Part shown: positions 1-16,708 of the stretch, piece after piece | How the letters are laid out: every line of letters begins with the position of its first letter | Position numbering within the stretch: the stretch's first letter is position 1 | Assembly: GCA_033764955.1 (NCBI GenBank) | Contig: JANRIL010000027.1 | Location: 1-16,708 of the forward strand | Length of the DNA stretch: 16,708 nt | DNA from: Cyanobacteriota bacterium | GTDB taxonomy: Bacteria > Cyanobacteriota > Cyanobacteriia > Thermostichales > Thermostichaceae | Direction: 5' to 3' | Position numbers and translations under genes: made by a program | Notes under the pieces: generated by a model | What the model saw: the letters and a program-made list of their open reading frames with translations, nothing else | Told to the model about the DNA's origin: nothing | Database searches by the model: none

Positions 1-430
1 GATTTTTGCTGAGGACTTGAACCTCAAAGCGACCAGTCGTGGCATGTTAGCAAAGCATTGTCTGGATGCTGCTTGGGGAAGTTTCCTGGAAATCCTCAAG
101 TGGGTTGCTTGGAAGAGAGGAGTTTACTTCGCCAAGGTTGACCCGAATCGAACAAGCCAAACCTGTCCTCAGTGTGGGGCGCATACTGGAAAGAAGGAAC
201 TCACTGAGCGGATACATCATTGCAATGAATGTGGATATACGACTGACCGAGATGTTGCTGCTGCTCAAGTGGTAGTGCAACGAGGTCTTGTACTTGTAGC
301 CGATGGACAGTCGGTGATACTGCCTGTGGAGGATGGTTGCTTGGGAACCCCGATGAAGCAGGAAAACCCAACCGCAAGGAAGGGAAAGCCCGCGCTCTAC
401 CCGCTAGGGTGAGCGTCCGGAGTATGTCAC
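1..430 (+). mobile_element. Right end of an IS200/IS605-family element
   Basis: tnpB is followed by a subterminal hairpin CGCTC-T-ACCC-gcta-GGGT-GAGCG (393-415) and GGAGTATGTCAC ending in TCAC (427-430), a typical IS605-type right-end cleavage tetranucleotide. The exact boundary is inferred. Confidence 0.75.
2..412 (+). CDS. tnpB: TnpB-family RNA-guided endonuclease (IS200/IS605), C-terminal part, truncated by window start
   Basis: Frame is open from position 2 (IFAEDLNL, RuvC-II Glu), followed by DAAWGSF, TSQTCPQCG..HCNECG zinc ribbon and DRDVAAA (RuvC-III Asp). Confidence 0.93.
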   Translation: MFAEDLNLKATSRGMLAKHCLDAAWGSFLEILKWVAWKRGVYFAKVDPNRTSQTCPQCGAHTGKKELTERIHHCNECGYTTDRDVAAAQVVVQRGLVLVADGQSVILPVEDGCLGTPMKQENPTARKGKPALYPLG

Positions 431-2172
431 AGATTGCCGTGACAGACTAAGGCTGGTTGAGGCAACAGGATCCGCTCCCCATGACCATCCCCTAAGCGAT
501 AAAGCTTGTCGAGCAAAGCATCCAAGTTTTGCCTTGTTTGGCAGGAAATAAACAGCGCCTTGGGATAGAGCAGGCGAATATCATTCACCCATTCGGGATC
601 CAATCGGTCAATCTTGTTAAAGATCAACTGCTGCGGCCCGACCGCGAGTGGTAATTCGGACAACAGTTTATCCACAGCGGCAATTTGGTCTTCCCAGTTG
701 GGATGAGAAAGATCGACAACATGCAGCAGAGCATCCGCTTCACTGACTTCTTCGAGGGTGGCTTGAAAGGCGTTGACCAAAGGGGTTGGTAGCTCCGTCA
801 AAAAACCCACAGTATCTGTCAAGAGCAGGGATCCGCCATTGGGGGTAGTCAAGCGGCGGGTGGTGGGATCGAGCGTGGCAAATAGCTGATCGGCGGCATA
901 GACATGGGAGTGGGTGAGGGCATTGAGCAGGGTGGACTTACCCGCATTGGTGTATCCCACAATCGCTACCACAGGAATTTCCGCCTGTTCCCGTTGCTGA
1001 CGCAGGCGCTGGCGATGGGCACGCAGAGCCTCTACCTCCTGCTTCAATTTGCTGATGCGCCGTTGAATGGCTCGCCGCTCCATTTCAAGCTGGGTTTCCC
1101 CAGGCCCACGGGTGCCGATCCCCCCCCCTAGCCGCGACATCGTGCCTCCTCGTCCGGCCAAACGGGGCAATAAATAGTCCAGTTGCGCCAGTTCTACCTG
1201 TAACTTGCCCGCACGGGAACGGGCACGCTGGGCAAAAATATCCAGAATGACCTCGCTGCGATCCACCACCCGCACGCCCACTTGCGTCTCTAGCGTGCGG
1301 ACTTGACTGGGGGATAGCTCCCGGTCAAACACCACTAGGTTAGCCCCCAAATCTTGAACCAAGAGAGCCAGCTCTTGTACCTTACCGGAGCCAATCAGGG
1401 TTTTGGAGCTGGGGTTATCTCGCCGTTGCCAAAGGGTATGCAGGACTTGCCCGCCAGCGGTTTCCACTAGCCGACTCAGTTCGCTCAGCTTATCGATCAG
1501 CTCCTCGTGAGATTGTTGAGGGTCTTGTAACCCGACCAAAATAGCCCGTTCCCCCAGTTGAGAAGCCGGATGGCGAGCCTCATGCTCCACCTGGCGGGCG
1601 CGAAAAAGACGGCGAAACTCGCTCTCTAGGTTTTCCACCAACTCGCTAAAATCCTGTTCCGCCAGCAGGCTTAAGGGGATGGGATCCGAAACCCGCCAGC
1701 GCAACTCTGGATCCGGCAGCAGGTGGGCAAGATAGGTGGTTTCGATAAATCCGGTGGCGGTTCCCCCCCGCCGTCGATGCCCGCCCGCCGATGAGAGGGT
1801 CAACACCACCAGGGCATCGAGCCGTTGCAGCGCCAACGCGGTTAGGGATTTTTGTCCCGGTTCTTGACCCGCCACCTGTACGGTGACACAGCGGATCCCT
1901 GATAGGCGTTCTGCCCCTTGGCGAGGCAGTTCGAGAGCCGGAATTTGGGTTTCAAAAGGGCTACCCATACCCACACGGATGACTTGCCCCCGCCGATTGA
2001 TATACACCGAGATCGGCTGCTCCCCCAACTCGTAGCTGATGGATCCCAGTCGTTCGGCAAACTCGATAGTAATAAAACGGTTGGAGGAGAGCCGCTGCTG
2101 AAACAGTTTTTGAAGTTGTTTGTGTTGATAGGGTTTGAGACCCCGACTGTGCAGAATTTCGTTCACGCGCAA
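427..2172 (-). CDS. hflX: GTPase HflX, long cyanobacterial form
   Basis: G1 GYTNAGKS, G2 LFATLDPT, G3 DTVG, G4 NKID; HflX signatures ILDIFAQRA, GKLQVELAQL and GGGIGTRGPGE. Start codon uncertain. Confidence 0.96.
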   Translation of the reverse strand: MRVNEILHSRGLKPYQHKQLQKLFQQRLSSNRFITIEFAERLGSISYELGEQPISVYINRRGQVIRVGMGSPFETQIPALELPRQGAERLSGIRCVTVQVAGQEPGQKSLTALALQRLDALVVLTLSSAGGHRRRGGTATGFIETTYLAHLLPDPELRWRVSDPIPLSLLAEQDFSELVENLESEFRRLFRARQVEHEARHPASQLGERAILVGLQDPQQSHEELIDKLSELSRLVETAGGQVLHTLWQRRDNPSSKTLIGSGKVQELALLVQDLGANLVVFDRELSPSQVRTLETQVGVRVVDRSEVILDIFAQRARSRAGKLQVELAQLDYLLPRLAGRGGTMSRLGGGIGTRGPGETQLEMERRAIQRRISKLKQEVEALRAHRQRLRQQREQAEIPVVAIVGYTNAGKSTLLNALTHSHVYAADQLFATLDPTTRRLTTPNGGSLLLTDTVGFLTELPTPLVNAFQATLEEVSEADALLHVVDLSHPNWEDQIAAVDKLLSELPLAVGPQQLIFNKIDRLDPEWVNDIRLLYPKALFISCQTRQNLDALLDKLYRLGDGHGERILLPQPALVCHGNL

Positions 2173-2392
2173 TGAAAATTAGAAATTAGTGGATAGGTCA
2201 AGCAACGTTTTGGAGAGGGGCAGGTGAATGGAGTTGCCCTTCATCTTAGCCGAGGCATGAAGGTGAAACCGGAGGAAAGCCCCGACCTCAGTGCTTGTAG
2301 TATGAATGTAACACAAAAGCGGATTTCTCGCCATAGTTTGTAGTACAAAGCAAATGATCGGGGGGATGGCAAAGCCTTGGCTTAGGGGATCC

Positions 2393-5134
2393 CTAGATCA
2401 GTTTGCTGAGGCGCTGGCTGAGGATTTGCTTTTGTTGCTCTAGTTCTTGCCGTTGTTGGCGGTTGCTGGCGACCACCTCGGCAGGCGCTTTATCCACAAA
2501 GTTGGGGTTGCTGAGGCGGGCGGTAATCCCCTCGATTTCCGCTTCTATTTTGTGAATATCTTTGCTGAGTTTGGCCTGTAGAGCGGCGATATCCACTAAT
2601 CCTGCCAAGGGCATCAACACCTGAATGGTGCCCACGACGGCAGCAGCCACCTGCTTGGGTTCACTGTCTAGGATTTCAACAATACGCAAGGTTTCCGATT
2701 TGGTCAGATCTTGAATGTAGGCTTGCGCTTCCTGCAAAATCGATTGGCCTGCCGGATCCTGGGTTTGCAGAATCGTGGTGATTTTTTGTCCGGGGTTGAG
2801 GTTGGCTTCGGCGCGCAGGTTGCGGATGGCGCGGATCGTCTCGATCACCACCCCGAAGGATTGTTCGAGGGAGGGGTTGATCTGGGATCCCTGCGCGGTG
2901 GGATAGGGTTGCTGCGCGATGGAAGTGGCTTGAGGTGGCTGGGTGAGCAGTTGCCAGATTTCTTCGGTGATGTGGGGCATCCAGGGGTGGAGCAGTTGTT
3001 GGAGGGTTTCTAGGACAAAGGCCAAAACCTGGCGGGCGGTCTGGGCTGAGGAGGTTTCTGGTTGGCGGAGGCGGGGCTTGACCAGCTCGATATACCAATC
3101 ACAAAAATCATCCCAGATCAGGCTGTAGAGGAGGCGTGCCCCTTCCCCCAGTCCGTAGCTGTCGAGGGCTTGCCGGACGGCCTGGGTGGTGGAATGGAGG
3201 CGAGACAGCATCCAGCGATCCGCCAGTTCCAATGCTCCTGGATCGGGGGATCCCAGTTGGGCGGGGGTTTGTCCTCCCAGATTCAGCAAAACAAAGCGGG
3301 AGGCATTCCAAATTTTGTTAGCAAAGTTGCGAGCAGCTTCTACTGAGGCTGAGTTGCCGGTTTTGCGGTCATAGGCTAGGCGGATATCCTGACCGGCTCC
3401 CACGACTTCCTTAACCAGGGCATAGCGCAGGGCATCGGTTCCGTAGCGATCCAAAAGATCGAGGGGATCGATGCCATTGCCCTTCGTCTTAGACATTTTG
3501 GCACCATTTTCATCCCGCACCAGGCCATTGATATAGACATCCTGAAAGGGAATTTGTCCGGTCAGGTGGGAGGCCATCATGGTCATACGAGCCACCCAAA
3601 AAAAGATGATGTCAAATCCGGTAGACATCAAGGTGTTGGGATAATAGCGGGCAAAATCCGCTGTTGGATCCGGCCATCCTAAGGTGGAAAAAGGCCACAA
3701 ACCCGATGAGAACCAAGTATCTAAGACATCGGGATCCCGTTGCAGTTGCACCGCTTCCCCATACTGTTGACGGGCTTGGGCATAGGCTTCGGCTTCGCTG
3801 CGAGCTACCACAAAGGCTTGAGCATCGGTTCTGGTTTTGTCTGGGCTTGCGGCAGCATCCAGCACATACCAAGCGGGGATTTGGTGCCCCCACCACAGTT
3901 GACGGGAGATGCACCAGGGTCTAATTTTTTCTAGCCAGCCTGTATAGACTTTTGACCAGCGTTCGGGCACAAAGCGGGGACTTTGTTGCTCCGTTTCGGC
4001 GGCTAAACAGGTTTGTGCCATGCCACTCACATCACAAAACCACTGGATGGAGAGATAGGGTTCGATCGGCACTCCCCCGCGATCACTGTAGGGAACCGTG
4101 TGGGTATAGGGTTCGACTTTATCGAGCAGGTGATGATCGGCAAACCACTCGACAATTTTTTGGCGAGCCACAAATCGATCCAACCCCGTGAAGGGATCCC
4201 CGTTTTCATTGAGGCTGCCATCCTCGTTCAAAATATTGATCATGGGCAATTGGTGCCGCTTGCCAATTTCAAAGTCGTTGGGGTCATGAGCTGGGGTGAT
4301 TTTCACACAGCCGGAGCCAAAGCTGGGATCCACATAGGCATCAGCAATAATCGGAATCAGGCGATCTTTGATGGGCAACCGGATGCTTTTGCCTATCCAG
4401 GCTTGATAACGAAGGTCGTCAGGATGTACAGCTACCGCCGTATCCCCCAGCATGGTTTCGGGGCGGGTTGTCGCCACCACCAAATAGTGAGCGGGATCCT
4501 CGGCTAAGGGATAGCGGAAATGCCAAAGGGATCCCTGCACCTCTCGATCATCCACCTCAATGTCAGAAACCGCCGAACGACTGGCGGGGCACCAGTTCAC
4601 CAAATATTCCCCCCGATAGATCAAGCCCGCTTCATAAAGGCGGACAAAAGCTTCGATCACCGAGCGATTGAGTCCTTCATCCATCGTGAAGCGAAGGCGC
4701 GTCCAATCAAGAGAAAGCCCTAACCGCCGCAGTTGACTGATGATATTGTTCTGAGACTGGGCTTTCCAACTCCAGGCGCGGGTCAAAAATTCTTCACGGC
4801 TCAGATCAAAGCGCGTTTTCCCCTCGGCTTTCAGTTGTTTTTCCAAAACTGTATGTACGGCAATCGAGGCGTGATCGGTGCCGGGAACCCACAGCACGTT
4901 GTAGCCCTGCATTCGTTTGTAGCGGGTGACAACATCCGGCAGCGTATAGGTGAAGGCGTGTCCCATGTGCAGGTTGCCCGTCACGTTGGGGGGAGGCAAG
5001 ACCATGCTAAAGGGATCCCCAGGCTGATCGGGATCGGCGGTATACACCCCCTGCTCTTGCCAAAACTGCTGCCATTTGGGTTCCACCTCGAAGGGGTTGT
5101 ATTGACTGGGCATCAGGGAGAGATCAAAAGCCAT
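2393..5134 (-). CDS. valS: Valine--tRNA ligase
   Basis: PPPNVTGNLHMGH (HIGH motif), KMSKT (KMSKS motif), WCISRQLWWGH, DVLDTWFSS and a C-terminal coiled coil with FVDKAP. Start placed at ATG 5134 (MAFDL) rather than the upstream ORF start at 5230. Confidence 0.98.
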   Translation of the reverse strand: MAFDLSLMPSQYNPFEVEPKWQQFWQEQGVYTADPDQPGDPFSMVLPPPNVTGNLHMGHAFTYTLPDVVTRYKRMQGYNVLWVPGTDHASIAVHTVLEKQLKAEGKTRFDLSREEFLTRAWSWKAQSQNNIISQLRRLGLSLDWTRLRFTMDEGLNRSVIEAFVRLYEAGLIYRGEYLVNWCPASRSAVSDIEVDDREVQGSLWHFRYPLAEDPAHYLVVATTRPETMLGDTAVAVHPDDLRYQAWIGKSIRLPIKDRLIPIIADAYVDPSFGSGCVKITPAHDPNDFEIGKRHQLPMINILNEDGSLNENGDPFTGLDRFVARQKIVEWFADHHLLDKVEPYTHTVPYSDRGGVPIEPYLSIQWFCDVSGMAQTCLAAETEQQSPRFVPERWSKVYTGWLEKIRPWCISRQLWWGHQIPAWYVLDAAASPDKTRTDAQAFVVARSEAEAYAQARQQYGEAVQLQRDPDVLDTWFSSGLWPFSTLGWPDPTADFARYYPNTLMSTGFDIIFFWVARMTMMASHLTGQIPFQDVYINGLVRDENGAKMSKTKGNGIDPLDLLDRYGTDALRYALVKEVVGAGQDIRLAYDRKTGNSASVEAARNFANKIWNASRFVLLNLGGQTPAQLGSPDPGALELADRWMLSRLHSTTQAVRQALDSYGLGEGARLLYSLIWDDFCDWYIELVKPRLRQPETSSAQTARQVLAFVLETLQQLLHPWMPHITEEIWQLLTQPPQATSIAQQPYPTAQGSQINPSLEQSFGVVIETIRAIRNLRAEANLNPGQKITTILQTQDPAGQSILQEAQAYIQDLTKSETLRIVEILDSEPKQVAAAVVGTIQVLMPLAGLVDIAALQAKLSKDIHKIEAEIEGITARLSNPNFVDKAPAEVVASNRQQRQELEQQKQILSQRLSKLI

Positions 5135-5595
5135 AGGATTGGGAAATGCGGGTCTTATCGTAGAACCAGAGTAACAAAAAGCCAGGGATCCCTTGGCGGC
5201 TGCTGAAAGCCTCTTTCCTTTGCCCAGCATTCGGCTTCATCCCCCTCAGGCCATCCTTCCCACTTAACTAGCCACCTCCCCATGGCTGGAGACCTTAAAG
5301 TGGAAAGCATTATTTCAGAATGCAACACTTGGGACCGTTTATGTGTGAGATATTCTTTAGGTGATGTTACTTCTATTAAATTTCTACAATCCCTTGAGCA
5401 TTAAAGACAAACCATCACCTAGTGTTCAAAATCAGCCTAGTTTACTCGTCGCCGCTGAATAGCACGGTTCTAGGGAATAAAATCAGCCAGATGGGGATCC
5501 CTTAGCCAACTGGTTCTGAAAGGAAGGTATACCGGAGATGGTATTTCATTCAAAAAAGATATACCCTGAAATGGATCCCAGTTATCATTAGCACT

Positions 5596-8034
5596 ATGTC
5601 AAGACAAATACCTCCTCAATGTCAGGATCTGAGTGCTCAAGTTGAAAGTTTGCTTACCCTCCTTCAACAAGAGTCAACTCTCCGTAGTCAGCAAGATACA
5701 ACTGCAATTCAGGCATCGCTTCGCAAGGCAATCTCCCCAACGTTTGAAATTGTCTTTGCAGGTGCATTTAGCGCTGGAAAATCAATGTTGATTAACGCAC
5801 TCCTTGGCAGAGAACTACTCTATAGTGCAGAAGGTCATGCAACGGGAACCGAATGCTACATTTCCTATGCTGAACCAGATAATGAGCAGGTTGTCTTAAC
5901 CTTTTTAAGTCAAGCAGAGATTCGAGAACAAGCTGAAGTTCTTTGTCAGCGGCTTAAATTAGATCCCCCAAAGGATCTCAGTCAGATAGCATTTTTAGAT
6001 AGCTTGCAGCAAAAGGCTAACCAGATTATTGAGCAAGAAGGTGGAAAAAGTAAATCAGATAAGGCCAAGCAAGCTGATGCACTTTTCTTATTATTAGATG
6101 GCTTTAAGAACAATACTGATCGAATTGATCTGAATAGAAATAATTCTTTTTCGATGCAGCAATTTAATTTTACTAACCTTAAAGAAGCAGCAAGTTATGC
6201 CAGAAGAGGGAGCAATAGTTCTGTGCTTCGAGAAATCAAGTATTTTTGCCATCACCCACTGCTAGAAGATGGCAATATTATTGTTGATACTCCAGGAATT
6301 GATGCTCCTGTCAGAAAAGATGCGCTTCGCACCTATGAGAAAATTGAGCATCCAGATACATCAGCAGTGATCTGTGTACTTAAATCTGCTTCGACAGGGG
6401 AGCTTACTACAGAAGAGACCGAACTCATTGAGCGAATACAAAATAACCTAAGTATTCGAGATCGTGTATTTTATGTATTCAACCGAATTGATGAAACCTG
6501 GTATAACAGCCAGCTTCGGCAACGCCTTGATAATCTCATTAGCACTCAATTTCGTTCTTCGACACGTGTTTATAAGACAAGTGGTTTATTAGGTTTTTAT
6601 GGTAGTCAAATTCGATCGGCTTCTGGACAAGATCGTTATGGACTTGACACCATTTTTTCCTCAATCATTAAAGGAGTTGATGGACAAGAAGAAACTCCCC
6701 AATTTATCAATGAATTTAATCGATACTGTGGTTCTTCTGGAAAACTAGTGGGAACTTCGTTGCGACCTTCTGTAAATGGCTATGAAACTCCCCTAGAAAA
6801 TTATGTAAGAATTTTGGGTGAGTGGGGCACGGATTTAATTGATCACATGCTCAAAGATAGTGGAATCGAAAGCTTTCGATTGGGTATAACCCGTTATCTA
6901 ACAGATGAGAAGCGTCCCCAATTATTTGCAGCTTTAGCCAATGATTTGCAACCCCTTTGCATTAGTATAAGAAAGTCGTATCTTGAACTTTTTCGAGAGC
7001 TAGACAGTCAGCCTCAGCAAGTGGAAGAGATGATAACCCACGAGCTAAGGAAACTCAGCCAAGATCTCGCTCGAATCGGGGAAGATTTTGCCGCACATAT
7101 TTCGGAGGAAGTCAATCAAGTTATCAATGGTAAAGCTACTGAATTTGAATCCGATTTTCGACGGTTACAAATGAGGATGGTGCATCGATTGGATGAATTG
7201 CTCAATACATTTTCAGTTGACAGTGCCTACAGTAGAGCTATTAGTAATCATCCGCGCAACTCGACAGCCCCACTGATCGCAGTCTTGGTAGAAGCCTTCT
7301 ATTATTTATCAAATGAGCTAGAGGATATTTTGGTAGAATCTTGCCAAACTCTGATTAACAACTACTTTCAATACCTTTTAGACAAGGTTAGGAAGTCAGA
7401 CTATTATCGAGATCTTTATCGCTTGCTTGGAAATGATGGAGGTTTAGAAAAGAAACTTAAAGAAGCAGAAGAGCGTGTATCAGATATTTTAGTGAGCGGA
7501 TCCCGAAATGAATGTGATCGATATGTGAGAGAGAGTCCTAGGTTTTATGACGAAGGAACATTCTCTATTTATCAGTTTCGACAGGTTTTACAACAAACAT
7601 CCCAAACCTATGATGTGAATGGAATTCGTGAAGCTGAACCTGCTATTCGTCAACTATTGAAGTTAGACTTTGAACCAAAAATCAACCAGACGGTTCGATC
7701 CAATTTTCGTCAGCAGACAAATAATACCCTTAAGAATCAGTTGCTTCCTCTATCCAAACAGCAGGCGGAAGATTTGCTGGAAAAATATGCTCAAGCAAGA
7801 GTCTATCTGGAGCAAACACTTGCTAAAGAGGCCGAGGAGAAAATTCAAAAAAATCAACGGTTGAGGACAGAGCTGGAGGAAAATATCAGCCTATATAACC
7901 AAGCTGTCTTGGGGATCAATCAGTGTTTACAGTCTATGCAACTGGATCGTCAGCAACTACCTATCATAGCAATGACAGATTATGTCAGCGCTACTCTTGA
8001 GATATCTTCTGAGATAAAGGGTGAAGGACAGTGA
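5596..8034 (+). CDS. Bacterial dynamin-like GTPase, SynDLP/Slr0869 (KGK-clade) type
   Basis: P-loop GAFSAGKS, G3 DTPG, G4 NRID, long helical stalk, HPRN motif, Cys9 and Cys777; 812 aa; followed by KGK-domain genes. Confidence 0.9.
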   Translation: MSRQIPPQCQDLSAQVESLLTLLQQESTLRSQQDTTAIQASLRKAISPTFEIVFAGAFSAGKSMLINALLGRELLYSAEGHATGTECYISYAEPDNEQVVLTFLSQAEIREQAEVLCQRLKLDPPKDLSQIAFLDSLQQKANQIIEQEGGKSKSDKAKQADALFLLLDGFKNNTDRIDLNRNNSFSMQQFNFTNLKEAASYARRGSNSSVLREIKYFCHHPLLEDGNIIVDTPGIDAPVRKDALRTYEKIEHPDTSAVICVLKSASTGELTTEETELIERIQNNLSIRDRVFYVFNRIDETWYNSQLRQRLDNLISTQFRSSTRVYKTSGLLGFYGSQIRSASGQDRYGLDTIFSSIIKGVDGQEETPQFINEFNRYCGSSGKLVGTSLRPSVNGYETPLENYVRILGEWGTDLIDHMLKDSGIESFRLGITRYLTDEKRPQLFAALANDLQPLCISIRKSYLELFRELDSQPQQVEEMITHELRKLSQDLARIGEDFAAHISEEVNQVINGKATEFESDFRRLQMRMVHRLDELLNTFSVDSAYSRAISNHPRNSTAPLIAVLVEAFYYLSNELEDILVESCQTLINNYFQYLLDKVRKSDYYRDLYRLLGNDGGLEKKLKEAEERVSDILVSGSRNECDRYVRESPRFYDEGTFSIYQFRQVLQQTSQTYDVNGIREAEPAIRQLLKLDFEPKINQTVRSNFRQQTNNTLKNQLLPLSKQQAEDLLEKYAQARVYLEQTLAKEAEEKIQKNQRLRTELEENISLYNQAVLGINQCLQSMQLDRQQLPIIAMTDYVSATLEISSEIKGEGQ

Positions 8035-8073
8035 TTATAGCTTATTTAGAATATAGAGGTGGAGTATTGAGAA

Positions 8074-8316
8074 ATGATTCTTGAATCAGGTTCACATGTA
8101 ATACTAGACATTAACAACTCAATATGCAAAGCAAGTTTTTTTCATGAATGTGTTGCTTTGACGCCCTCTGATTTTGAGGCAAAACTTACCAATAAACTCA
8201 ACTCTAAGGGATCCATTTTTGAACAGGGATCCCTGAGTGGCATTCTTGCCAAAGGAGTAGCCTGTAAAATACTTCAACCTAAATCTGATTGTCAAAAAGA
8301 CAAATTGATGAATTGA
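8074..8316 (+). pseudogene. Truncated/degenerate KGK-domain protein
   Basis: GVACKILQPKSDCQKDKL parallels [19 protein letters not shown] of the next gene. The W..KGK motif reads CQKDK, and the ORF stops before the EF.PDE..SPLD tail. Confidence 0.6.
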
Positions 8317-8349
8317 GATGCCTTATGTTCAGGACATCAAGGGAAAACC

Positions 8350-8718
8350 ATGAATGATCGAAAATATTACTCGTTAGAAAATGAAAAACTTAAGGAAGGA
8401 GTCATTGCAATCAAGCATAGCACCTGCAAAATTAACCATTTTCTACAATTGATTGTCAATGCTTTTTCTGATCTGAAGCAGATAGGAAATCAGCTTGAGC
8501 GTTCCTTACCAGATTATTTAGTTAAAGATGCTAACCTGAGTTATGAAAAAAAGGGTGAGTGGTTCTTAGAAGGGATCCCCTGCCAAATTCTTATCCCAGG
8601 AGCTGAAAAATGGAAAAGCGGCAAAGTGAGGGTACGACTTACGTTTACTGCTGAATTTTCTCCTGATGAAACCGATGACATGGATTCTCCCCTTGACGAT
8701 ATACGGCACGGCTCATGA
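8350..8718 (+). CDS. KGK domain-containing protein
   Basis: [40 protein letters not shown] matches the cyanobacterial KGK family pattern; lies downstream of the dynamin gene. Confidence 0.85.
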
Positions 8719-8960
8719 GCAAAACTCAACGCATACGGATCCCATTGTCGGTTCGTGAATATGTCTTAAATCGAGATCAATATCAGTGTCAAAGCTGTGG
8801 TCAACAGGGATCCCAAGAGCTATTGCAAGTTGATCACATCATTCCACTTGCTCAGGGAGGGTCTAATGACATTAGCAATTTACAAACTCTTTGTAGAACC
8901 TGCAATCAGAAGAAAAGTGATAAGCGGGATCCCCGATTTCATCCTTACTTTAGGATTTAG
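8715..8960 (+). CDS. Small HNH endonuclease
   Basis: [10 protein letters not shown]...[29 protein letters not shown] is a zinc-binding HNH signature; ATGA overlap with the KGK stop codon. Confidence 0.93.
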
Positions 8961-9034
8961 TTGTCAGTCTCAGGCTTTCTTTTATGATGAGCAATGATTT
9001 AGCTGAGTATGATGTTCTTTATATCTGTTCTGAA

Positions 9035-9970
9035 TCAACCATCAACTCGTACTGAACTGTGCCAAAATACAAAACGCTTTTCGAGCCACACAAGCACAAG
9101 ATAAACAACAGTGCTCAAAACGGTGACATAGACAATGGCAGCCCAGACAATATCAAAATTAAAACGAGCTGCTTCAATCTTAATGCGAAATCCTAACCCA
9201 TAGCCCGGAGCACCAAAAAATTCTCCAACAATAGCAGCAATCACGGCCAAAGTAGCCGCCAATTTGGCAGCATGGAAGAGGTAAGGTTGGGCTTGTGGCC
9301 AACGTAAATATTGAAAATCTTGGCGCGGATCCGCCGCATAGGATCGCATCAAATCTAAATGATCATGATTAACCGACTCTACTCCTCGCACCGTATTGAT
9401 CACCACCGGAAACAAAACGACTAGCGCAGCGATCACCGCCTTAGAAGGCCACTCTACCCCAAGAGCACCCACCACTACAGGAGCCAAAGCCGGAATCGGA
9501 ATGCTGGAAAAAATCGCCAGATAAGGGATTAACCCCTGCCCCAGCCAACCAAAACGAGTCAAACCCAATCCCAATAGGATCCCTCCCCCTATCCCCGCCA
9601 CCCATCCAGCCGTTGCCTCTCGCCCAAAGGTTTGCAGACTATCTTTGAGCAAGACAGCCCGCGCTGTCCATAGCGCCCGCACCACACGGCTGGGCGTAGG
9701 CATCAGCCCCGGCGGGATCCCATAACCCACCAGCAGTGTTTGCATAAGTAGCAATCCTAACAAGAGGGTAAGCAAGGGAGGGATCCATCCCTGATAAGCG
9801 CGGGCTAACCCCCAACATCCCCGCCCCGCTAACCCTGCCGCTAACAGGATCCCCCATCCCAAGAGAGAAGCTTCTACCGTTTGTCCCAACAGGGCGATCA
9901 GGAGCATACCCACGCCATAACAGACCCAGTCGATCCAGATTTTCTCAGGTTTCAAAGTAGAGCCTTGCAA
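9035..9970 (-). CDS. ABC transporter permease, NitT/TauT (SsuC-like) family
   Basis: Multiple TM segments; SIPIPALAP, FPVVINTVRGV, EAA-like loop DLMRSYAA, AIVGEFFG..GLG. Start (TTG) uncertain. Confidence 0.88.
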   Translation of the reverse strand: MQGSTLKPEKIWIDWVCYGVGMLLIALLGQTVEASLLGWGILLAAGLAGRGCWGLARAYQGWIPPLLTLLLGLLLMQTLLVGYGIPPGLMPTPSRVVRALWTARAVLLKDSLQTFGREATAGWVAGIGGGILLGLGLTRFGWLGQGLIPYLAIFSSIPIPALAPVVVGALGVEWPSKAVIAALVVLFPVVINTVRGVESVNHDHLDLMRSYAADPRQDFQYLRWPQAQPYLFHAAKLAATLAVIAAIVGEFFGAPGYGLGFRIKIEAARFNFDIVWAAIVYVTVLSTVVYLVLVWLEKRFVFWHSSVRVDG

Positions 9971-10080
9971 GACTTTCTGCCCACTAACTTTCTATCCAGT
10001 ATAGAAAAGGATGGGAAATGCCAATGTCCAACCAAATGGCTCAACCAGGCTACCAGAATCCCGCAGAGATGAAGGGTAGT

Positions 10081-10287
10081 CTACAGTAACATCAAAGCCC
10101 AGATCCGGCTATCGTTAGCCGGCATCACCCGTCGAGACAATACAGCCGAAAATAAATGATCCAAAACATTGAGATCTTGATGGGTGTAGTCTTGCATTTT
10201 TAAGAGGGTATCTATGCCCTCCTCTTGATCGGAAGTGAGCACGCAGGTTTCCATCACCTTGGCTACAATCTCAGGAATCGTCATCAT
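10081..10287 (-). CDS. Small hypothetical protein resembling a conserved cyanobacterial family
   Basis: MTIPEIVAKVMET.VLT.DQEE.I..LL...DL.VLD.L..AVLS.RV amphipathic pattern; start placed at ATG 10287. Confidence 0.6.
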   Translation of the reverse strand: MMTIPEIVAKVMETCVLTSDQEEGIDTLLKMQDYTHQDLNVLDHLFSAVLSRRVMPANDSRIWALMLL

Positions 10288-10444
10288 AAGAGGAGTTCTC
10301 GATTTCAAGGGCAACGTCAGCAGGTATTTGCTTTTCTACAAATGAGTATCGAACGACAGACCCCTGTTCCACAGCCGCACAATCGTCGGGATCCTCTACG
10401 CGATCCGGCTGAACCTCTCTGGCCTAGATGGGGCTGAACCCTTT

Positions 10445-11800
10445 TTACGTAACTAGCGTCTTGCCCTGCATAGAAAGCTGTAGCAATTCCATAGGATGCA
10501 ACACAGGTATCGCCGCTTGATTTTTTCGTTGCAAGTGTTTCAAGATTTGCAAGCGACAGCCGATATTGGCGGATACAATCACCTCTGCCCCCGTATTGAC
10601 CAGATGGGTTACTTTTTGATCCCCCAATTCCTCGGCAACCTCCGGTTGCAAAAGGTTATAAATCCCCGAACTGCCACAACATAAGGCCGCATCAATCGGT
10701 TCACGCAGCTCTATTTGAGGAATTTGTTGGAGGAGTTGACGGGGTTGCAGACTAATTTTTTGTCCATGCAACATGTGGCAGGCATCTTGATAAACCAGCT
10801 TGAGGATCCCTGCTTTGAGGGGAAATAAAGGCGTGGTTAACCCTACTTCCGCCAGAAACTCCTGCACATCCTTGACCTGTCGAGAAAAAGCAACAGCTTT
10901 TGTGGCGTACTCCGCATCCTCCTGCAAAAGTTGTCCGTAGACTTTCAGGGTGTGTCCGCAACCGGAGGCATTGATTAAAATCGCATCCAGGGGTTCGCTT
11001 GCCTGACTAGGGGCGAAATGATCAATCATCGCTTTTGCCAAAGTCTGTGCCTGTGCCTCTTGACCTTGGTGGTGAGGCAACGCCGCACAACAGCCCTGGT
11101 TTGGGGGAATCACCACCTCACAACCATTGGCGGTTAAAACCTCCACGGTTGCTTGATTCACTTCGGGGGCAAAAAGCCGTTGCACACAACCTAAAATCAT
11201 CCCCACCCGAAACCGCCGGGATCCCTGGGCAGGAATCACTTCAGGAAAAACGCTAGCTGTTAACTGTTCTTTCCTGAGAGGGGGAAGGATCGACTCCATC
11301 GCCGCTAACTGGGGAGCCAGTTTGTTGAGGATCCCCGTTTGGCGAAACCATTTTTGTAATCCCCACTGTTGATAAGCCCAGATCGGGTAGAGAAGGGGAC
11401 GCAGCCGTTCGGGATAGGGAAATAACGAAAAAAGGGTCTGACGCAGCCATTGTTCTGGCAAGGGACGCGGGTAATGGCGTTCTATCTGGACACGGGTAGC
11501 GGCAATTAGCTGGTCGTATTGCACCCCCGATGGACAGGCGGTGACACAAGCCAAACAGCCCAAACAGCTATCAAAATGGGAAATGGTTGTGGCTGACAGT
11601 CCGATTTGCTGCTGATGGATGGCATCCATCTGATAAATTCGCCCGCGGGGAGAATCGGTTTCCTTGCCGATCACCCGATAACTGGGGCAGGTGGTCAAAC
11701 AAAACCCGCAATGCACACAGGCATCGATCAGGCGAGGATCCGGTGACTGGTCAGGGTCAAAACCGATCAGGGGGGGCGAGGTGGGCTGAGGGTCAGACAT
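10445..11800 (-). CDS. glcF: Glycolate oxidase iron-sulfur subunit
   Basis: Two 4Fe-4S motifs (CVHCGFCLTTCP, CLGCLACVTACP), SPRGRI, and two CCG domains (GCV..QGCC..ASGC; YQDACH..CCGSSG..NIGC). Start placed at ATG 11800. Confidence 0.9.
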   Translation of the reverse strand: MSDPQPTSPPLIGFDPDQSPDPRLIDACVHCGFCLTTCPSYRVIGKETDSPRGRIYQMDAIHQQQIGLSATTISHFDSCLGCLACVTACPSGVQYDQLIAATRVQIERHYPRPLPEQWLRQTLFSLFPYPERLRPLLYPIWAYQQWGLQKWFRQTGILNKLAPQLAAMESILPPLRKEQLTASVFPEVIPAQGSRRFRVGMILGCVQRLFAPEVNQATVEVLTANGCEVVIPPNQGCCAALPHHQGQEAQAQTLAKAMIDHFAPSQASEPLDAILINASGCGHTLKVYGQLLQEDAEYATKAVAFSRQVKDVQEFLAEVGLTTPLFPLKAGILKLVYQDACHMLHGQKISLQPRQLLQQIPQIELREPIDAALCCGSSGIYNLLQPEVAEELGDQKVTHLVNTGAEVIVSANIGCRLQILKHLQRKNQAAIPVLHPMELLQLSMQGKTLVT

Positions 11801-11916
11801 AAAACCAAACATTCCTAGGGGGCTGGGTTGGCAAGGGTGCAATGGCCGGGATCCCGGCGGAATGGCTCTAGTGGGGATAGTAATTGCATCCTAAACTTGT
11901 TTCGGTCGTGCCATCG

Positions 11917-12591
11917 TTATCCACTGATTTGCACGGCTCGCAGGGCTTCCATCGCTTCATGACGCAAACTTTGTGCGCGACGAAATAACTCCAGCCCGGT
12001 ATGCAGATGCCTATCGTCAAAATTGAGGGGAAAAAAAGCTAACTCTTCTAGAGCATCGTCCAGATGGTTAAGGATGTAGTAAAAACGGGTAGCCACTCCC
12101 GCCAAACTACTAGGATTTGGCCAACCGCGAAACAGGATTTGGGCTTTGCTGAGCTTCTCGCGGCAATCTTGGAGATAGCGATCAAAATCATCCACTAAGT
12201 CAGGGTCAAAAGGGTCAGCCGATAAACTATTCAGTTCGGGATTGAGAGACTTGAGCAAGCCTGCCAACAGACGGTTGAGGGGAGCATAAACCTTTTGGAT
12301 CCACTCTTGCTGGGCGGTGGCTTCATCGCTAACGGTAGCGGTAGTGACAGCTTGGGAGTAAGATGATGCCCCGGAGGTCGGCTGAATGTGTTGATCATAG
12401 GAGTGACGAGCCTCCCGATCTCGGAGAATGGCGTAGGCGGCGTTGATTTGACGAATCCGGTCGCCGTCATTTTGGGTGGCGTCGGGGTGGTGTTGCTTGA
12501 CCAAGCGGCGATAAGCCTGCTTAATCTCGGCAGGGGAAGCACTGGTGGGGATACCTAACGTGTGATAGTGGGTGGATCCCTGAGAGGTCAT
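11917..12591 (-). CDS. J-domain (DnaJ type III) protein
   Basis: N-terminal J domain HYHTLG..EIKQAYRRL..HHPD..INAAYAIL..R..YD, followed by a helical C-terminal domain. Confidence 0.9.
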   Translation of the reverse strand: MTSQGSTHYHTLGIPTSASPAEIKQAYRRLVKQHHPDATQNDGDRIRQINAAYAILRDREARHSYDQHIQPTSGASSYSQAVTTATVSDEATAQQEWIQKVYAPLNRLLAGLLKSLNPELNSLSADPFDPDLVDDFDRYLQDCREKLSKAQILFRGWPNPSSLAGVATRFYYILNHLDDALEELAFFPLNFDDRHLHTGLELFRRAQSLRHEAMEALRAVQISG

Positions 12592-12786
12592 CGAGAAAAA
12601 GCTAACTCCAGCGCCCTCATTCTATCGTCAAGTCCACCAACCCATAACTGGTTTGTCAAAGGGGTGAATGGTGGCAACCTGCCCACCCTCACCTGGGGAA
12701 ACCAGCAACCGCAGGCCAAATCATTCCATTTTCAGAAAAAAGGGTTTAGCGTGAAGCTAGAAGTCTTTGGGGTATTGCAGGCAGAA

Positions 12787-13266
12787 ATGGCTCTGGATAA
12801 TTTACGCGGTCTCTATCAGCAGGTGATTTTAGAACGCTATAAGAAACCCCATCACCGTGGACAAACAGATCCGGTTCACCGCAGGCAGCGGGGGCATAAT
12901 CCCTCCTGCGGAGACACCATTGATCTCACGTTACATTTGGACGCTGACGAACAAACGATCATCGATGTCAAATTTGAAGGGGAAGGCTGCGCGATTGCTT
13001 TAGCCTCCGCCGATCTGATGGCCGATGCGCTGCGGGGATCCCCTTTGGGGGAGGCCATGACTATGATTGAGCAGTTCCAAAAGATGATGCAGGGTAACTG
13101 GGAGTTTCCCCGTAGCCAGAGGGCACTCAATGCCATGCAGGGGGTAGCTCAATTTCCCGTCAGAATTAAGTGTGCCACTTTACCTTGGCATACTCTCAAA
13201 TATGCTCTGACCACCCCCTCTCCAGAGCCATCCACAACCTTTGTTAGTAATGAAGCCGAAACCTAA
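12787..13266 (+). CDS. sufU: SUF-system NifU/SufU-family Fe-S assembly protein
   Basis: LYQQVIL, HNPSCGD, FEGEGCAIALASA, FPVRIKCATLPWH; start placed at ATG 12787. Confidence 0.92.
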   Translation: MALDNLRGLYQQVILERYKKPHHRGQTDPVHRRQRGHNPSCGDTIDLTLHLDADEQTIIDVKFEGEGCAIALASADLMADALRGSPLGEAMTMIEQFQKMMQGNWEFPRSQRALNAMQGVAQFPVRIKCATLPWHTLKYALTTPSPEPSTTFVSNEAET

Positions 13267-13318
13267 ATAGGATGATCAGCGGGGATGTATTTACAACAAC
13301 CCGATCACCAGACTCCAG

Positions 13319-13357
13319 CTAACTCTTCGTTGCTTCAGGATGAAATACGTACCTCAT
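13319..13357 (-). pseudogene. N-terminal stub of a RelE/ParE-family toxin
   Basis: MRYVFHPEA(TKS*) starts with an ATGA overlap on the antitoxin stop. M.Y.FHPEA is a typical ParE-like N-terminus; the rest of the gene is missing. Confidence 0.65.
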
Positions 13358-13584
13358 GGCTCAATCAGCCGTCTGACCTGAGCTAAAGCACCTTCACCTG
13401 GAATTGGTTGAACAGAACCATCTCACACTTCATTTCGTCGTCGCTTGGCTTCAGTTACCCAAACTGCCTGAATTGCTGAGTCGGTGTCAAACTCTAAGCT
13501 TTCCACTCATTTGTCTGCAAGCAGTGCTCTAGACTCATTAGGTAGGGGCAATAACTCTTCAGTCAGTTGCTCGATTGACCGCAT
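13354..13584 (-). pseudogene. Addiction-module antitoxin pseudogene (TIGR02574/PF09720-like)
   Basis: Manual translation MRSIEQLTEELLPLPNESRALLADK*VESLEFDTDSAIQAVWVTEAKRRRNEV*DGSVQPIPGEGALAQVRRLIEP*; in-frame TGA at 13507-13509 and 13423-13425; GAGGG RBS upstream. Confidence 0.8.
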
Positions 13585-13729
13585 ATGCCCTCACATGGCA
13601 CTACATAGCAATATGAGTAGTTTAAGCGGTATTCGCTGCCGTTGACTGACACCCAAAGTCAACAGTTTCATAGGCTTTGCACTCCTTGCAACCGATTCGA
13701 GTGATCCCCTACATCAGGCTTGTGAAATT

Positions 13730-14332
13730 TCAAGAATAGTTGTGTGTGTAATTTGACTCAAGTTGAGAATCTAGGAGAGATAAAATATTTGGCTCGACAT
13801 CAATCGCTCATTCAGCAACTCCAGCTTGTACATGGGCACAATGTGCAGCATTATTTCTTGCATAAATCAGCTCTTGAAGACCACCAACTGTCTCTTGGGG
13901 TAGAATTTCCTGCCTACTCAGTTGACGTAAAAGATTGCTTAAAGACTTTCTCTCATTAATTCCGTGCTTCATAGCGTATTCTCGGAGTCGCGTTTCGATT
14001 TCAATTCGTAACCCCAACAAAGCAAGGTTAGGATTATGCTCAGCAATTGCTACAAAACTCGGTGATGCTGGTGTAACTGATTCAGAGGTTTGTAAAGATA
14101 GGCTGCCTGTGACTCTTTCAGCAGCTTCTCGAAGATCTCTAAATTTAACCTCTCAGCCACCCAGAAACTTGACACTTTCTATTAATTCAGAGAGACATGG
14201 AAGAACTGCGACAGTAATCAGTCCAAAAGTGGCTGTATCAATTTTAAGATCAGGGCGCCAGATTCTTACGACAATCACACAAATAGCAGCAGTAGATATA
14301 ACAATTTTCAGTCGATTAATTGAAACTTTCAT
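13730..14332 (-). pseudogene. Cassette gene remnant: N-terminal TM helices plus HEPN-like (DUF4145-like) C-terminus
   Basis: One frame from ATG 14332: MKVSINRLKIVISTAAICVIVVRIW..FLGG*EVKF..PNLALLGLRIEIETRLR..RNNAAH..VAE*AIDVEPNIL..YS*; internal TGA at 14153-14155 and 13808-13810. The end point is approximate. Confidence 0.7.
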
Positions 14333-14363
14333 AAATAATTCATTGAGCGAAATTTTTGTATTC

Positions 14364-14453
14364 GCCTAACGGCTCAAATCAGCGGCGGCAGACGACGAAC
14401 TCAAACTCATCACCAGCGGCTCCCAACAGTCCGCTGCATTTGAATTGTTAGCC
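14364..14453 (-). other. Integron attC site (90 bp)
   Basis: Minus strand: R'' GGCTAAC, AATTCA, L'' AATGCAGC, GG-A-C...GCC, L' GCTGATT, TGAGCC, R' GTTAGGC. Unpaired bases fall in the first arm, and the upstream gene's TAA lies inside R''. Confidence 0.9.
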
Positions 14454-14897
14454 TACTTTTTCGGGTATCGAAGGTAATTGTTGAAGATACTGAATGTATT
14501 CAGTAGGTAGACCATGCTCGATTGCTCCTAGAATAACCATTTGTTTGTAAGAGTCAAAAGCAACTGGATTGTCAACTAAAGAATCTGAAATGTAAGTTTC
14601 TGCTTCTGCTATTTCACCATTATCTTTCGTGACTTTTACTCTTGTTCGAGCATAGCCCTTTTCAATTCTGTCAAGTTTACTTATTTCATCAATACCAATC
14701 TCATACAAACTTCCCCATGTAACAAGACCAGGCTTATAAAACAAATTAGCTTTTCCAGAACCATCCCTACTTTTTTTACTAAACTTTACGCCCCAATCAT
14801 ACAGAACTGCACGTCCTATCACTTTGGCAGCAATAGTTCGTTGAGCCAGACGGCTTGACATCATATTTGAGCCATAAGCAAAGTATAAGATTGTCAT
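14448..14897 (-). CDS. Gamma-glutamylcyclotransferase (AIG2-like/GGCT) family protein, cassette-borne
   Basis: LYFAYGSNM, GKANL, WGSLYEI, LDRIEKGY, Y...VILGAIEHGLP.EY. Confidence 0.9.
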   Translation of the reverse strand: MTILYFAYGSNMMSSRLAQRTIAAKVIGRAVLYDWGVKFSKKSRDGSGKANLFYKPGLVTWGSLYEIGIDEISKLDRIEKGYARTRVKVTKDNGEIAEAETYISDSLVDNPVAFDSYKQMVILGAIEHGLPTEYIQYLQQLPSIPEKVG

Positions 14898-15464
14898 TCA
14901 TCCACAATGAGAAATAATGGCTTGCATTTTCTTGCGAAAATTAGACCAAGTTTCACTATTCCAATCTTCTTTCTCTAAGGTCAAACAGTAGTACTCTAGA
15001 CAATTCTCCATCTCATTATGGAATGAAGTCGCATTTATTGTTTTTGTTTTAACTTCAAAGAGAGAACCATCTCTGCGAATATGCCATCCATCCATAGTTT
15101 CTGCTTGGTGTAATATTCCACAGCGTACATTTTTGTAAAAGCTTTCTGCATAGCCTTGAAAGGCACTAAGATTTTGATTCCTGGCAAAAAAAGAACAAAA
15201 CGCCAACTTACTTCTGCTTCTTGAATTATCCCATCCCTGCCAGAAAGACTCTAAGGTTTCAATCATCAAACAGCAAATTGCCATTGTGCAAAAGCCATGT
15301 TTCAGTTTAGGGTCACAGCGTAATGGAGTAATGTACCTTTCTGTAAATCTCAATTTAATAAATTCAATAATCTTTGGTTTATCCTTCTCTTTCTCCATTT
15401 GGAGATAATCAGCGACACTGACGTTTTTAGATAGAAGCGTTTGGTATGGTATTTCTTCGCCCAT
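14898..15464 (-). CDS. Hypothetical helical protein with HEPN-like RX4H motif, cassette-borne
   Basis: CLMIETLESF..AFCSFF..FYKNVRCGILHQAET. Start placed at ATG 15464 behind AAAGGA; its stop directly abuts the GGCT ATG. The HEPN call rests on the motif only. Confidence 0.7.
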   Translation of the reverse strand: MGEEIPYQTLLSKNVSVADYLQMEKEKDKPKIIEFIKLRFTERYITPLRCDPKLKHGFCTMAICCLMIETLESFWQGWDNSRSRSKLAFCSFFARNQNLSAFQGYAESFYKNVRCGILHQAETMDGWHIRRDGSLFEVKTKTINATSFHNEMENCLEYYCLTLEKEDWNSETWSNFRKKMQAIISHCG

Positions 15465-15540
15465 TTCTGGTTCCTTTACTTTAAAGATGCCTATTGACAA
15501 CCAGATCAGCTTCAGTACTACCTCCACTGATAATTCAGCA

Positions 15541-15598
15541 GGCTAACGTCGAAGTTCAGCGGGCGCCGTATGCGATCCGCTGGAACGACCTGTTCGAC
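15541..15598 (-). other. Integron attC site (58 bp)
   Basis: Minus strand: R'' GTCGAAC, AGGTC (5), L'' GTTCCAGC (extra C), GGA...CC, L' GCTGAAC, TTCGAC (6), R' GTTAGCC; canonical 59-base-element architecture. Confidence 0.93.
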
Positions 15599-15607
15599 CG
15601 CTGCGCG

Positions 15608-16426
15608 TCATGCCAGCTTTCCCTCGAACGCGAGGAGTTGCTCGGCTTTGATGATGATGCCCAGATTGTTAGGAATTCCCGCGAGAGAAATAGCCTTCTG
15701 CTGGGTCGGCACCAACACTACGCGGATCTCGCCCTCAACGGTGTGTTGGGGGCCCGCATAGAGGATCCCCAGAAGCTTCACTCTGGATGAGCCCATGAAC
15801 GTGCCCTTCTTAGTCTGATACCCACCGACTTCAAAGAGCATTACCGGCGACCCGCTGGAGCCGGGGAAGCAGGCAGCGTCGATCAAGAACTCCTTCTTGC
15901 CGTTCCAGTCCCGCTTGTAGTCAGTAGCCAACACTCCACGTCGAAATATCGGAAGGTTGTTGGCACTGTCCCAGAGCCCGTTGGGATAACCGACCATAGT
16001 GATGCTTTCAAGGCCAACCATGTCCTCAATTTCTTCCGCGGAGGGAATCAACGTCTTGTCCATCGTGGAAAAGAAGAACTGTTTCCCGGTCTTCTGTGCC
16101 TCATTCAAAAGCGGCGCAATTGGCATCACGCAGAGATCCACAGCAGGATCGGGATGCGGCAGCCAACGCTGCTCGAAAGAATCGAGCTCGTACGCCTGGC
16201 ACTGCCCCACCACCGGCAATCCATCACTACCTTGCAAGGTGAGGAGAAAGCGCCCCTTCTTCGCACCCGTCACGACATGCTTGTTCGTCACGATCACCGG
16301 AGTGTACTGATCACCTCTCTTGTCAAGGCTGTAGAAGAAGCCGGTACCTGTCCCGACACCGGTGGGGAGGTCGCACTCTATGCGCACCGTGCTGTGTGCG
16401 AGCTGTTCAGCGAGACTTAGAGACAT
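15608..16426 (-). CDS. Trypsin-like serine protease, cassette-borne
   Basis: GTGFFY, VTNKHVV (His), VDLCVM (Asp), VGYPNG, FPGSSGSPV (Ser); no signal peptide evident. Confidence 0.9.
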   Translation of the reverse strand: MSLSLAEQLAHSTVRIECDLPTGVGTGTGFFYSLDKRGDQYTPVIVTNKHVVTGAKKGRFLLTLQGSDGLPVVGQCQAYELDSFEQRWLPHPDPAVDLCVMPIAPLLNEAQKTGKQFFFSTMDKTLIPSAEEIEDMVGLESITMVGYPNGLWDSANNLPIFRRGVLATDYKRDWNGKKEFLIDAACFPGSSGSPVMLFEVGGYQTKKGTFMGSSRVKLLGILYAGPQHTVEGEIRVVLVPTQQKAISLAGIPNNLGIIIKAEQLLAFEGKLA

Positions 16427-16439
16427 AAGTCATTCAGCG

Positions 16440-16525
16440 GTCGAACGGTTGAATTGAGCGGACGCAAATGCTTTTTGAATCAACGATAGCGTTTACCGAC
16501 GTTCCGCTCCAATGAAGTGTTAGCT
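16440..16525 (-). other. Integron attC site (86 bp)
   Basis: Minus strand: R'' AGCTAAC, ACTTC (5), L'' ATTGGAGC, GG-A-ACG...CGTCC, L' GCTCAAT, TCAACC (6), R' GTTCGAC. Confidence 0.92.
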
Positions 16526-16708
16526 GGCTGAGTGCAACTGCTGGAGGAATTCTTGATAAATCGGCTTATGTGACGCTGAAAAGTTCTCCATGCCTGTCTT
16601 TGTTAAGTTTCCGCTCTTTCCAGTATGCGGATTCTTTACATAGCTAGAAATCACTTTTGGGCGTTCTGGATTCTCATGCCAGGTAATGTTGAAAGCTGCG
16701 TATTTTGG
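16520..16708 (-). CDS. 3' end of an unknown cassette gene, truncated by window end
   Basis: Open frame PKYAAFNITWHENPERPKVISSYVKNPHTGKSGNLTKTGMENFSASHKPIYQEFLQQLHSAS* with its TAA inside the attC R'' box; absent from the ORF track. Confidence 0.7.
   Translation of the reverse strand, partial: PKYAAFNITWHENPERPKVISSYVKNPHTGKSGNLTKTGMENFSASHKPIYQEFLQQLHSAS

Follow-up and report, generated by a model that had tools for sequence, protein, structure and literature searches.

An integron-type cassette array beside sufU in a cyanobacterium rich in attC sites

Cyanobacteria stand among the integron-bearing phyla in the survey that described attC clusters that have no integron-integrase (CALINs; Cury 2016, PMC4889954), and an attC covariance model specific to Cyanobacteria has been presented (Ghaly 2021, PMC8352920). 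In the account of Larouche and Roy (2011, PMC3053210) the two extra bases of attC sites usually follow the pattern T-N6-G, the spacing of six nucleotides (nt) being the one best used by integrases, and engineered T-N6-C sites were used well by the integrase IntI1. Defence genes carried in cassettes are in print, as is the insertion of cassettes outside att sites, and HEPN proteins have been reported from integron cassettes (Anantharaman 2013, PMC3710099; PDB 3jrt). The DNA considered here, termed the window, is the entire 16,708-nt contig JANRIL010000027.1 (C32) of a cyanobacterial genome (G000) of 3.8 Mb in 48 contigs. Its right-hand part is very probably a genuine integron cassette array on the minus strand, comprising one cassette that runs off the contig end, two that are whole and a ParE-type toxin–antitoxin cassette, decayed and truncated, that abuts the chromosomal flank at sufU. 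It is an ordinary instance of an already known type of element. A preliminary description of the same DNA, made from its letters alone, had proposed an integron-type array, a reading supported by the finding that its sites and the arrays beside two full-length integrases share one attC family. The accompanying remark that cyanobacterial integrons are little characterised needs correction, as they are already catalogued in the surveys named above (PMC4889954 and PMC8352920).

The locus resembles the CALINs and sedentary chromosomal integron arrays of PMC4889954 in that its cassettes are co-oriented and hold mostly unknown genes, no integrase gene (intI) is seen on its contig, and the genome carries complete integrons as well. 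It differs in being cut short where the contig ends and in having a broken cassette as its chromosomal edge. Like the cyanobacterial attC family modelled in PMC8352920, the family to which the window's sites belong is lineage-wide and fairly uniform.

Anatomy and family of the attC sites

Three attC sites on the minus strand, with R''-L''-L'-R' boxes and unpaired bases, had been described previously, and inspection of the sequence bears them out (Table 1). All three share a common plan. It begins with a 7-nt box ending in AAC, five or six unpaired nt, a stem of 3-4 base pairs, an extra base, a stem of 6 base pairs and an extra A; there follow a loop of free length, the partner stems without extra bases, five or six unpaired nt and a 7-nt box starting with GTT. 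Read on the bottom strand, the extra bases form T-N6-C in attC_A and attC_C and T-N6-G in attC_B. Every site lies downstream of a co-oriented open reading frame (ORF). The earlier statement that each site follows a gene and that two stop codons fall inside R'' proved accurate, the TAA codons at 16522-16520 and 14450-14448 being the two in question, while the third stop (15610-15608) sits 9 nt ahead of the R'' of attC_B.

Three covariance models were used to place these sites in a family: R1, built from the window's three sites only; R2, from 41 sites of the family; and R3, from only the 10 sites in the two arrays that adjoin intact intI genes, on contigs C9 and C38. With R1, 40 further sites were found in the genome at E<1e-3, including all six strong sites beside the C9 intI and two beside the C38 intI. 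R2 scored the window's sites at 85.5, 72.1 and 41.8 bits on the minus strand, compared with 17.3, 10.9 and <7 bits on the plus strand. R3 recognized all of the window's sites on the minus strand: attC_A at 78.9, attC_C at 46.4 and attC_B at 27.6 bits (E values for the three sites of 2e-21, 1e-11 and 7e-6). Below E 1, the plus strand of attC_A (E 0.002) was the only additional match that it gave in the 16.7 kb. The R3 test is strong but not fully independent, because its sites were picked and aligned with models descended from those of the window.

The family alignment also carries a structural signal. Across the 41 sites the L stem is 93.5% paired, with two-sided changes at eight of its nine pairs, and its covariation score of 0.355 compares with 0.134 in shuffles, none of 500 of which reached the observed value, and with 0.040-0.085 in controls in which the partner was slid. 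The R stem is 78% paired, a low value that is expected because R' within an array is a hybrid with the next cassette. The sites share with the attC of class 1 integrons (PMC3053210) a pair of extra bases that lie on one arm at a spacing of 6 nt and have a bottom-strand T on the loop side, a feature found in 41/41 family members (top-strand A); unlike class 1 sites the family is mostly T-N6-C, the base on the R-box side being a bottom-strand C in 35/41. The T-N6-G/C spacing in the window and in the family agrees with the integrase-preferred spacing of that study.

Several observations weigh against the array reading and are collected here. The folding energy of the sites on the minus strand is no better than that of shuffled sequences (z -0.86, -1.96 and -0.49). 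Their R'' boxes (GGCTAAC, GTCGAAC and AGCTAAC) match RYYYAAC, the wider R'' consensus of attC sites, in part, with only AAC/GTT constant, and the extra base near the R box is a bottom-strand C in attC_A and attC_C in place of the usual G. The alignment from which R1, R2 and R3 all derive was itself started from the three sites of the window. No attC was found for the leftmost unit, 13267-14363, by any of the three models with filters off, and contig C32 carries no intI or attI (TIGR02249, no match), the side on which intI would lie being beyond the contig end. Apart from these points, a crude box-and-stem pattern scan was unspecific, giving 314 matches in the genome against 644 when the genome was reversed. 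Rfam returned no match in 13200-16708 at E<=1; to our knowledge, it holds no attC family.

Table 1. Features of the window from the contig end (top) to the chromosomal flank (bottom); aa, amino acids; GC, guanine plus cytosine content
Feature	Position	Strand	Details
Cassette interrupted at the contig end, 3' part	16446..16708	-	contains an open-ended ORF, 16520-16708 (62 aa, no family), together with the greater part of attC_C
attC_C	16525-16440 (86 nt)	-	R'' AGCTAAC, R' GTTCGAC; R''-L'' arm with extra bases G and A at a spacing of 6 nt
Cassette 1	15547..16445 (899 nt)	-	GC 0.54-0.58; G↓TT crossover in R'
Trypsin-like serine protease gene, 272 aa	15608..16426	-	Pfam Trypsin_2 E 2.3e-12; phrog_7688 E 1.5e-72
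attC_B	15598-15541 (58 nt, short loop)	-	R'' GTCGAAC, R' GTTAGCC; extra bases C and A
Cassette 2	14370..15546 (1177 nt)	-	GC 0.36-0.37; two genes
188-aa protein gene, unnamed family	14898..15464	-	invariant R-x4-H; alternative GTG start at 15527
GGACT/AIG2-like protein gene (gamma-glutamyl cyclotransferase fold), 149 aa	14448..14897	-	AIG2_2 E 2.3e-12, GGACT E 8.2e-8; stop inside R'' of attC_A
attC_A	14453-14364 (90 nt)	-	R'' GGCTAAC, R' GTTAGGC; extra bases G and A; last attC of the array
attC-less stretch	13585..14363	-	short ORFs only: 59 aa (hydrophobic), 41 aa, 70 aa; GC ~0.40; no GGGATCCC
Unstab_antitox-type antitoxin pseudogene	13354..13584	-	in-frame stops 13509-13507 and 13425-13423; 77% identity over 74 aa to the intact G014 gene
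ParE-family toxin gene remnant	13313..13357	-	first 9 codons left; likeness to relatives stops near 13313; attC missing
sufU	12562..13266	+	TIGR01994 160.2 bits, cut-off 92.5; SufU match is residues 82-216 of the ORF; chromosomal flank, outside the element

Boundaries and cargo of the cassettes

The cassette ends pair as those of excisable circles, as had been proposed from the sequence. The start of cassette 1, TTCGACC (16445-16439), is complementary to its own R'' side, GGTCGAA (15599-15593), and that of cassette 2, TTAGCC (15546-15541), to its own R'', GGCTAA (14453-14448). The 5' end of each cassette therefore pairs with its own first box and not with the box of the attC in which it stands, which is the pattern predicted by circular excision followed by re-insertion.

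Independent support for the boundaries is provided by a cassette that stands in two contexts. The last 265 nt of C32 recur at the end of contig C31 with 99.2% identity (2 mismatches); the two contigs are alike across the whole attC through the GTT of R' and split at the next base, beyond which C32 continues into cassette 1 and C31 into unrelated DNA, a different cassette. Contigs of this assembly share end overlaps of 139-142 nt (141 nt, for example) at graph nodes. Since C31 and C32 end in the same 141-mer, the sequence past 16708 continues in a piece outside the bin, in which no contig other than C31 overlaps the end of C32.

In the established model of integrons, each attC would form from its bottom strand (the plus strand of the window) a hairpin in which the two flipped-out bases, T-N6-C or, in attC_B, T-N6-G, would orient the integrase. 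IntI would cut R' at G↓TT in top-strand notation, which on the bottom strand reads AA↓C. Two attC sites recombining with each other would free a cassette circle, 16445-15547 or 15546-14370, and recombination of attC with attI or with another site would re-insert the cassette. The integrase could act in trans, the enzymes encoded by the intI genes on C9 and C38, whose arrays use the same attC family, being the candidates, and we infer that the sites are still recombined today. The one DNA sequencing run considered gave only two contigs (157 and 198 nt) over 14568-14973, with no joints and no loose ends, and is uninformative on circles and on the sequence beyond 16708.

The protease encoded by cassette 1 matches the PADLOC candidate defence family PDC-S45 (E 6.1e-114), residues 1-270 aligning with profile positions 11-282 of 293, and by this sequence similarity represents a candidate defence module. 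The gene was not found in the genomes of 30 relatives.

Cassette 2 contains two genes, the first of which encodes a 188-aa protein with 699 homologues at E<=0.001; the family's genomic relatives extend across many phyla and include some archaea. Arg114 (R114) and His119 (H119) are invariant in 26 aligned members, in keeping with the R-x4-6-H motif of HEPN proteins. The AlphaFold2 (AF2) model is helical, with a predicted local distance difference test score (pLDDT) of 91.8, and its VIA matches include the HEPN chains 4nqf, 9bj5, 3o10, 7ae2 and 8jbc at Z 5.0-5.5, with which non-HEPN helical proteins tie, within noise. A Foldseek search of the model against the PDB returned nothing at E<=0.001, and a profile search of PDB sequences with the family gave a best E of 0.049, to unrelated proteins. 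The protein has no match in Pfam, PADLOC or NCBIfam. It resembles the HEPN family of integron cassettes (PDB 3jrt, PMC3710099) in being a small helical protein with R-x4-6-H that is borne on a cassette, and differs in that its gene comes as a pair with a GGACT-like gene, the two being fused in one case. The profile search linked it by sequence to no solved chain, and 3jrt is absent among the 50 structure matches listed. With its invariant motif, the 188-aa protein is possibly HEPN-like.

The pairing with the GGACT-like gene is not confined to the window. Such a gene follows the gene for the 188-aa family in 15/80 loci of other genomes, and a single natural fusion of the two, P0118, was found; together these observations indicate a recurring module. 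The loci for the family and for its GGACT/AIG2-like pairing are L076, L080, L081, L083, L084, L086, L089 and L091-L094. With the model trained on cyanobacteria, an attC-like site was found near the 188-aa-family gene in 3/80 loci at E<=1e-3 and in 6/80 at E<=0.1. A literature search returned no paper that pairs HEPN with AIG2/GGCT, the only joint mention being AIG2 within an accession number, and the available text of the HEPN survey (PMC3710099) mentions neither cyclotransferase nor GGCT. It is tentatively suggested that cassette 2 may be an uncharacterised toxin–antitoxin or anti-phage module, in which the partner with the cyclotransferase fold would control or arm an RNase-like protein carrying R-x4-H and possibly of HEPN type, and which would occur in many phyla, partly as an integron cassette.

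The left edge and the chromosomal flank

The start of the element had been set at 13319, which is near the actual end of the integron-derived DNA at ~13313. A correction concerns 13313-14363, which is no normal cassette but a remnant without attC. Within the attC-less stretch, the 70-aa ORF gave a sub-threshold match to DUF4145 (19.4 bits, against a cut-off of 23.1), and 13585-14363 had no match in 30 relatives.

The origin of the leftmost part is revealed by comparison with related genomes. The DNA from 13603 to 13313 is 72-85% identical to five of them, well over the ~70% observed for sufU. In the relatives G003 and G014 an Unstab_antitox gene overlaps a ParE-family toxin gene and is followed directly by an attC, the intact G003 homologues matching PF09720 (antitoxin, E 3.2e-16) and PF05016 (toxin, E 1.6e-11). 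The unit in these genomes is thus like the ParE/RelE-type toxin–antitoxin cassettes of chromosomal integrons. Unlike such intact cassettes the window's copy is dead: the antitoxin gene is interrupted by two stops, only nine codons remain of the toxin gene, and the rest of the toxin gene and the attC are lost. The remnant ends 46 nt from the stop codon of sufU. As the cassette is broken inside the toxin gene, the left edge points to a later deletion or rearrangement and not to a clean insertion. Searched with R1, 11 loci of relatives (sufU loci in 10 cases) gave no site, a result of little weight as the relatives are distant. A candidate attC selected by eye at 13317-13413 was rejected; it folds no better than shuffled sequences (z -0.50), and its GTTAGCT lies within the toxin gene remnant. 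A related unit of three genes, bounded by attC sites, is found in G014 at 1837-3425 of locus L161 (G014:C1:1935500-1941000), and encodes a 203-aa protein, an antitoxin and a ParE toxin. The 203-aa protein has hydrophobic N-terminal segments, no Pfam match and no likeness to window 13585-14363.

The composition of the array is foreign to the DNA beside it. Positions 1-13266 contain ordinary chromosomal genes (an hflX-like GTPase gene, valS, a dynamin-like gene, a KGK-domain gene, an ABC permease gene, a glcF-like gene, a DnaJ-domain gene and sufU), and from ~13313 to the contig end the DNA is of a different character, with every gene on the minus strand. GC in the integron-derived part steps between 0.36 and 0.58, moving from 0.37 to 0.58 at a cassette boundary. 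The sequence GGGATCCC, an iterated palindrome of the host, occurs 4915 times in the genome, against 109 for GCGATCGC. Together with 11 matches to phycobilisome proteins, which among 14 control genomes were found only in Synechococcus elongatus, this count justifies the earlier label of a GGGATCCC-type cyanobacterium. The window's last copy of GGGATCCC is at 13035, and none is present in 13267-16708 (3442 nt), where 4.45 are expected (Poisson P ~0.012). Other arrays in the genome were counted in the same way, giving 1 observed versus 9.0 expected in C9:961-7943, 1 versus 13.3 in C38:53283-63587, 0 versus 3.0 in C31:20605-22930, 0 versus 3.9 in C12:16504-19482 and 0 versus 5.0 in C28:10741-14602; the looser C30 cluster, the exception to these five other arrays, is not depleted (8 versus 10.6). 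Scarcity of GGGATCCC could be a simple marker for recently acquired DNA in this genome. Promoter-like sites (4, with 4.7 expected) and terminator-like sites (4, with 3.6 expected) are at chance level.

Within the flank, the longest sufU frame begins at a GTG and overlaps by 30 nt the divergent DnaJ-domain gene (11917-12591, minus strand). Since the SufU match begins at residue 82, the true start is probably an internal ATG near 12787. The DNA identity of sufU to its nearest relatives is ~70%, and in some relatives sufU and the dnaJ-like gene are unlinked. The contig begins within a plus-strand frame (2-412) that carries a Cas12f1-like TNB domain (TnpB-type, E 1.4e-20) and is probably a repeated insertion sequence element that broke the assembly on the left side. 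At 8350-8960, also on the plus strand, a small two-gene unit stands amid housekeeping genes; its KGK-domain gene (E 1.8e-20) extends over the start of the second gene, which encodes an HNH endonuclease of 81 aa (E 1.1e-18).

Integrases, the spread of sites and the origin of the array

The genome contains two full-length intI genes, C9:19-960 on the minus strand (463 bits) and C38:63588-64529 (451 bits; TIGR02249, cut-off 265), which share 87.5% DNA identity. In the C9 integron seven ORF-attC units occupy the strand opposite to intI and lead away from it. Six strong family sites and a seventh at E 0.003 stand beside this gene, and four beside the C38 intI. The orientation of the window's sites matches that of these intI-linked arrays and of the cassette genes, so any attI or intI would lie to the right of 16708, in agreement with what had been surmised from the sequence. 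Remnants of intI occur elsewhere, at C36:180-860 (with two TAG stops), C30:655-831 and C38:182627-182934. A supposed intI fragment at C4:4-123 is a mere overlap with the C9 intI (C4:1-141, C9:1-141); because it is a shared end overlap, C4 and C9 are neighbours in the assembly graph. A further stretch, C11:37538-37914, shares 73-81% identity with the C9 and C38 intI genes, over their upstream part and 5' flank, and adjoins a cluster of two sites (C11:33783-33867 and 36523-36610); it may be the remnant of a third integron platform.

Sites of the family are spread widely through the genome. R2 identified 72 at E<1e-3 in 45 places, 31 of them single sites and 14 clusters of two to six. A co-oriented ORF of at least 60 codons precedes 47 of the 72, compared with 23 in the opposite-direction control. 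Among the 31 genomes searched the family (R2) occurs in 27, G000 being the richest with 66 sites at E<=1e-4 and the next holding 35, and integron integrases above the cut-off are present in 15. Many single sites score like those adjacent to intI (72-85 bits), for example C36:41699-41784, C11:16167-16252, C13:23277-23362, C42:77270-77356 and C6:6535-6620, and in the closed genome of a relative, G019, sites are likewise scattered round the chromosome. The scattered single sites may reflect natural insertion of cassettes at places other than attI.

Against a criterion requiring a minimum of two attC sites spaced by less than 4 kb, the window has three, separated by gaps of 841 and 1087 nt, and the array on the present contig, which ends 183 nt beyond attC_C and inside a cassette, counts as a CALIN. 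We lean towards a free-standing array rather than one joined to an intI gene or intI pseudogene past 16708. The foremost alternative, plausible if not what we would expect, is that a complete integron has its far end here, with attI and an intact or decayed intI on the plus strand within a few kb past 16708 and an assembly gap at the break. The orientation of the cassettes places the platform to the right, C32 stops inside a cassette, its end shares with C31 a 141-mer that leads into a piece outside the bin, and the further intI remnants on C36, C30 and C38 add to this case; however, both intact intI genes have arrays that come to a close on the contig carrying the gene, C9 or C38, and only C31 in the bin overlaps the end of C32. 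It is rather unlikely that the array was seeded by insertion of cassettes at a genomic site other than attI, through the attC x attG route, and never adjoined an integrase. That route has been shown experimentally (bioRxiv 10.1101/2022.09.11.507474), and in G000, as in the closed relative G019, the sites as a rule occur singly and scattered or in small clusters, but the left edge shows no clean G↓TT junction with the chromosome, being instead the cassette broken in the toxin gene that points to later deletion or rearrangement. Palindromic repeats of the repetitive extragenic palindromic (REP) or miniature inverted-repeat transposable element (MITE) kind, mimicking attC and unrelated to integron recombination, are a highly improbable source of the sites, for although 31 of the 45 places hold a single site and the folding energy is unremarkable, the family is concentrated beside integrases, its orientation follows the upstream ORFs, the sequences between sites differ in genes and GC, the R-box halves pair across cassettes as a G↓TT crossover predicts, and the stem covaries while the loop is free.

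Taken as an integron cassette array, the element leaves the understanding of how integrons work unchanged. It provides a well-documented natural example of cassettes in cyanobacteria, in which integrons have been surveyed yet hardly studied at the bench. The genome itself is unusually rich in sites (72 in 45 places, with two intact integrases), which makes it a good subject for the study of integrase activity, of the scattering of cassettes over the chromosome and of cassette function, and the two whole cassettes of the window are candidate defence or toxin modules.

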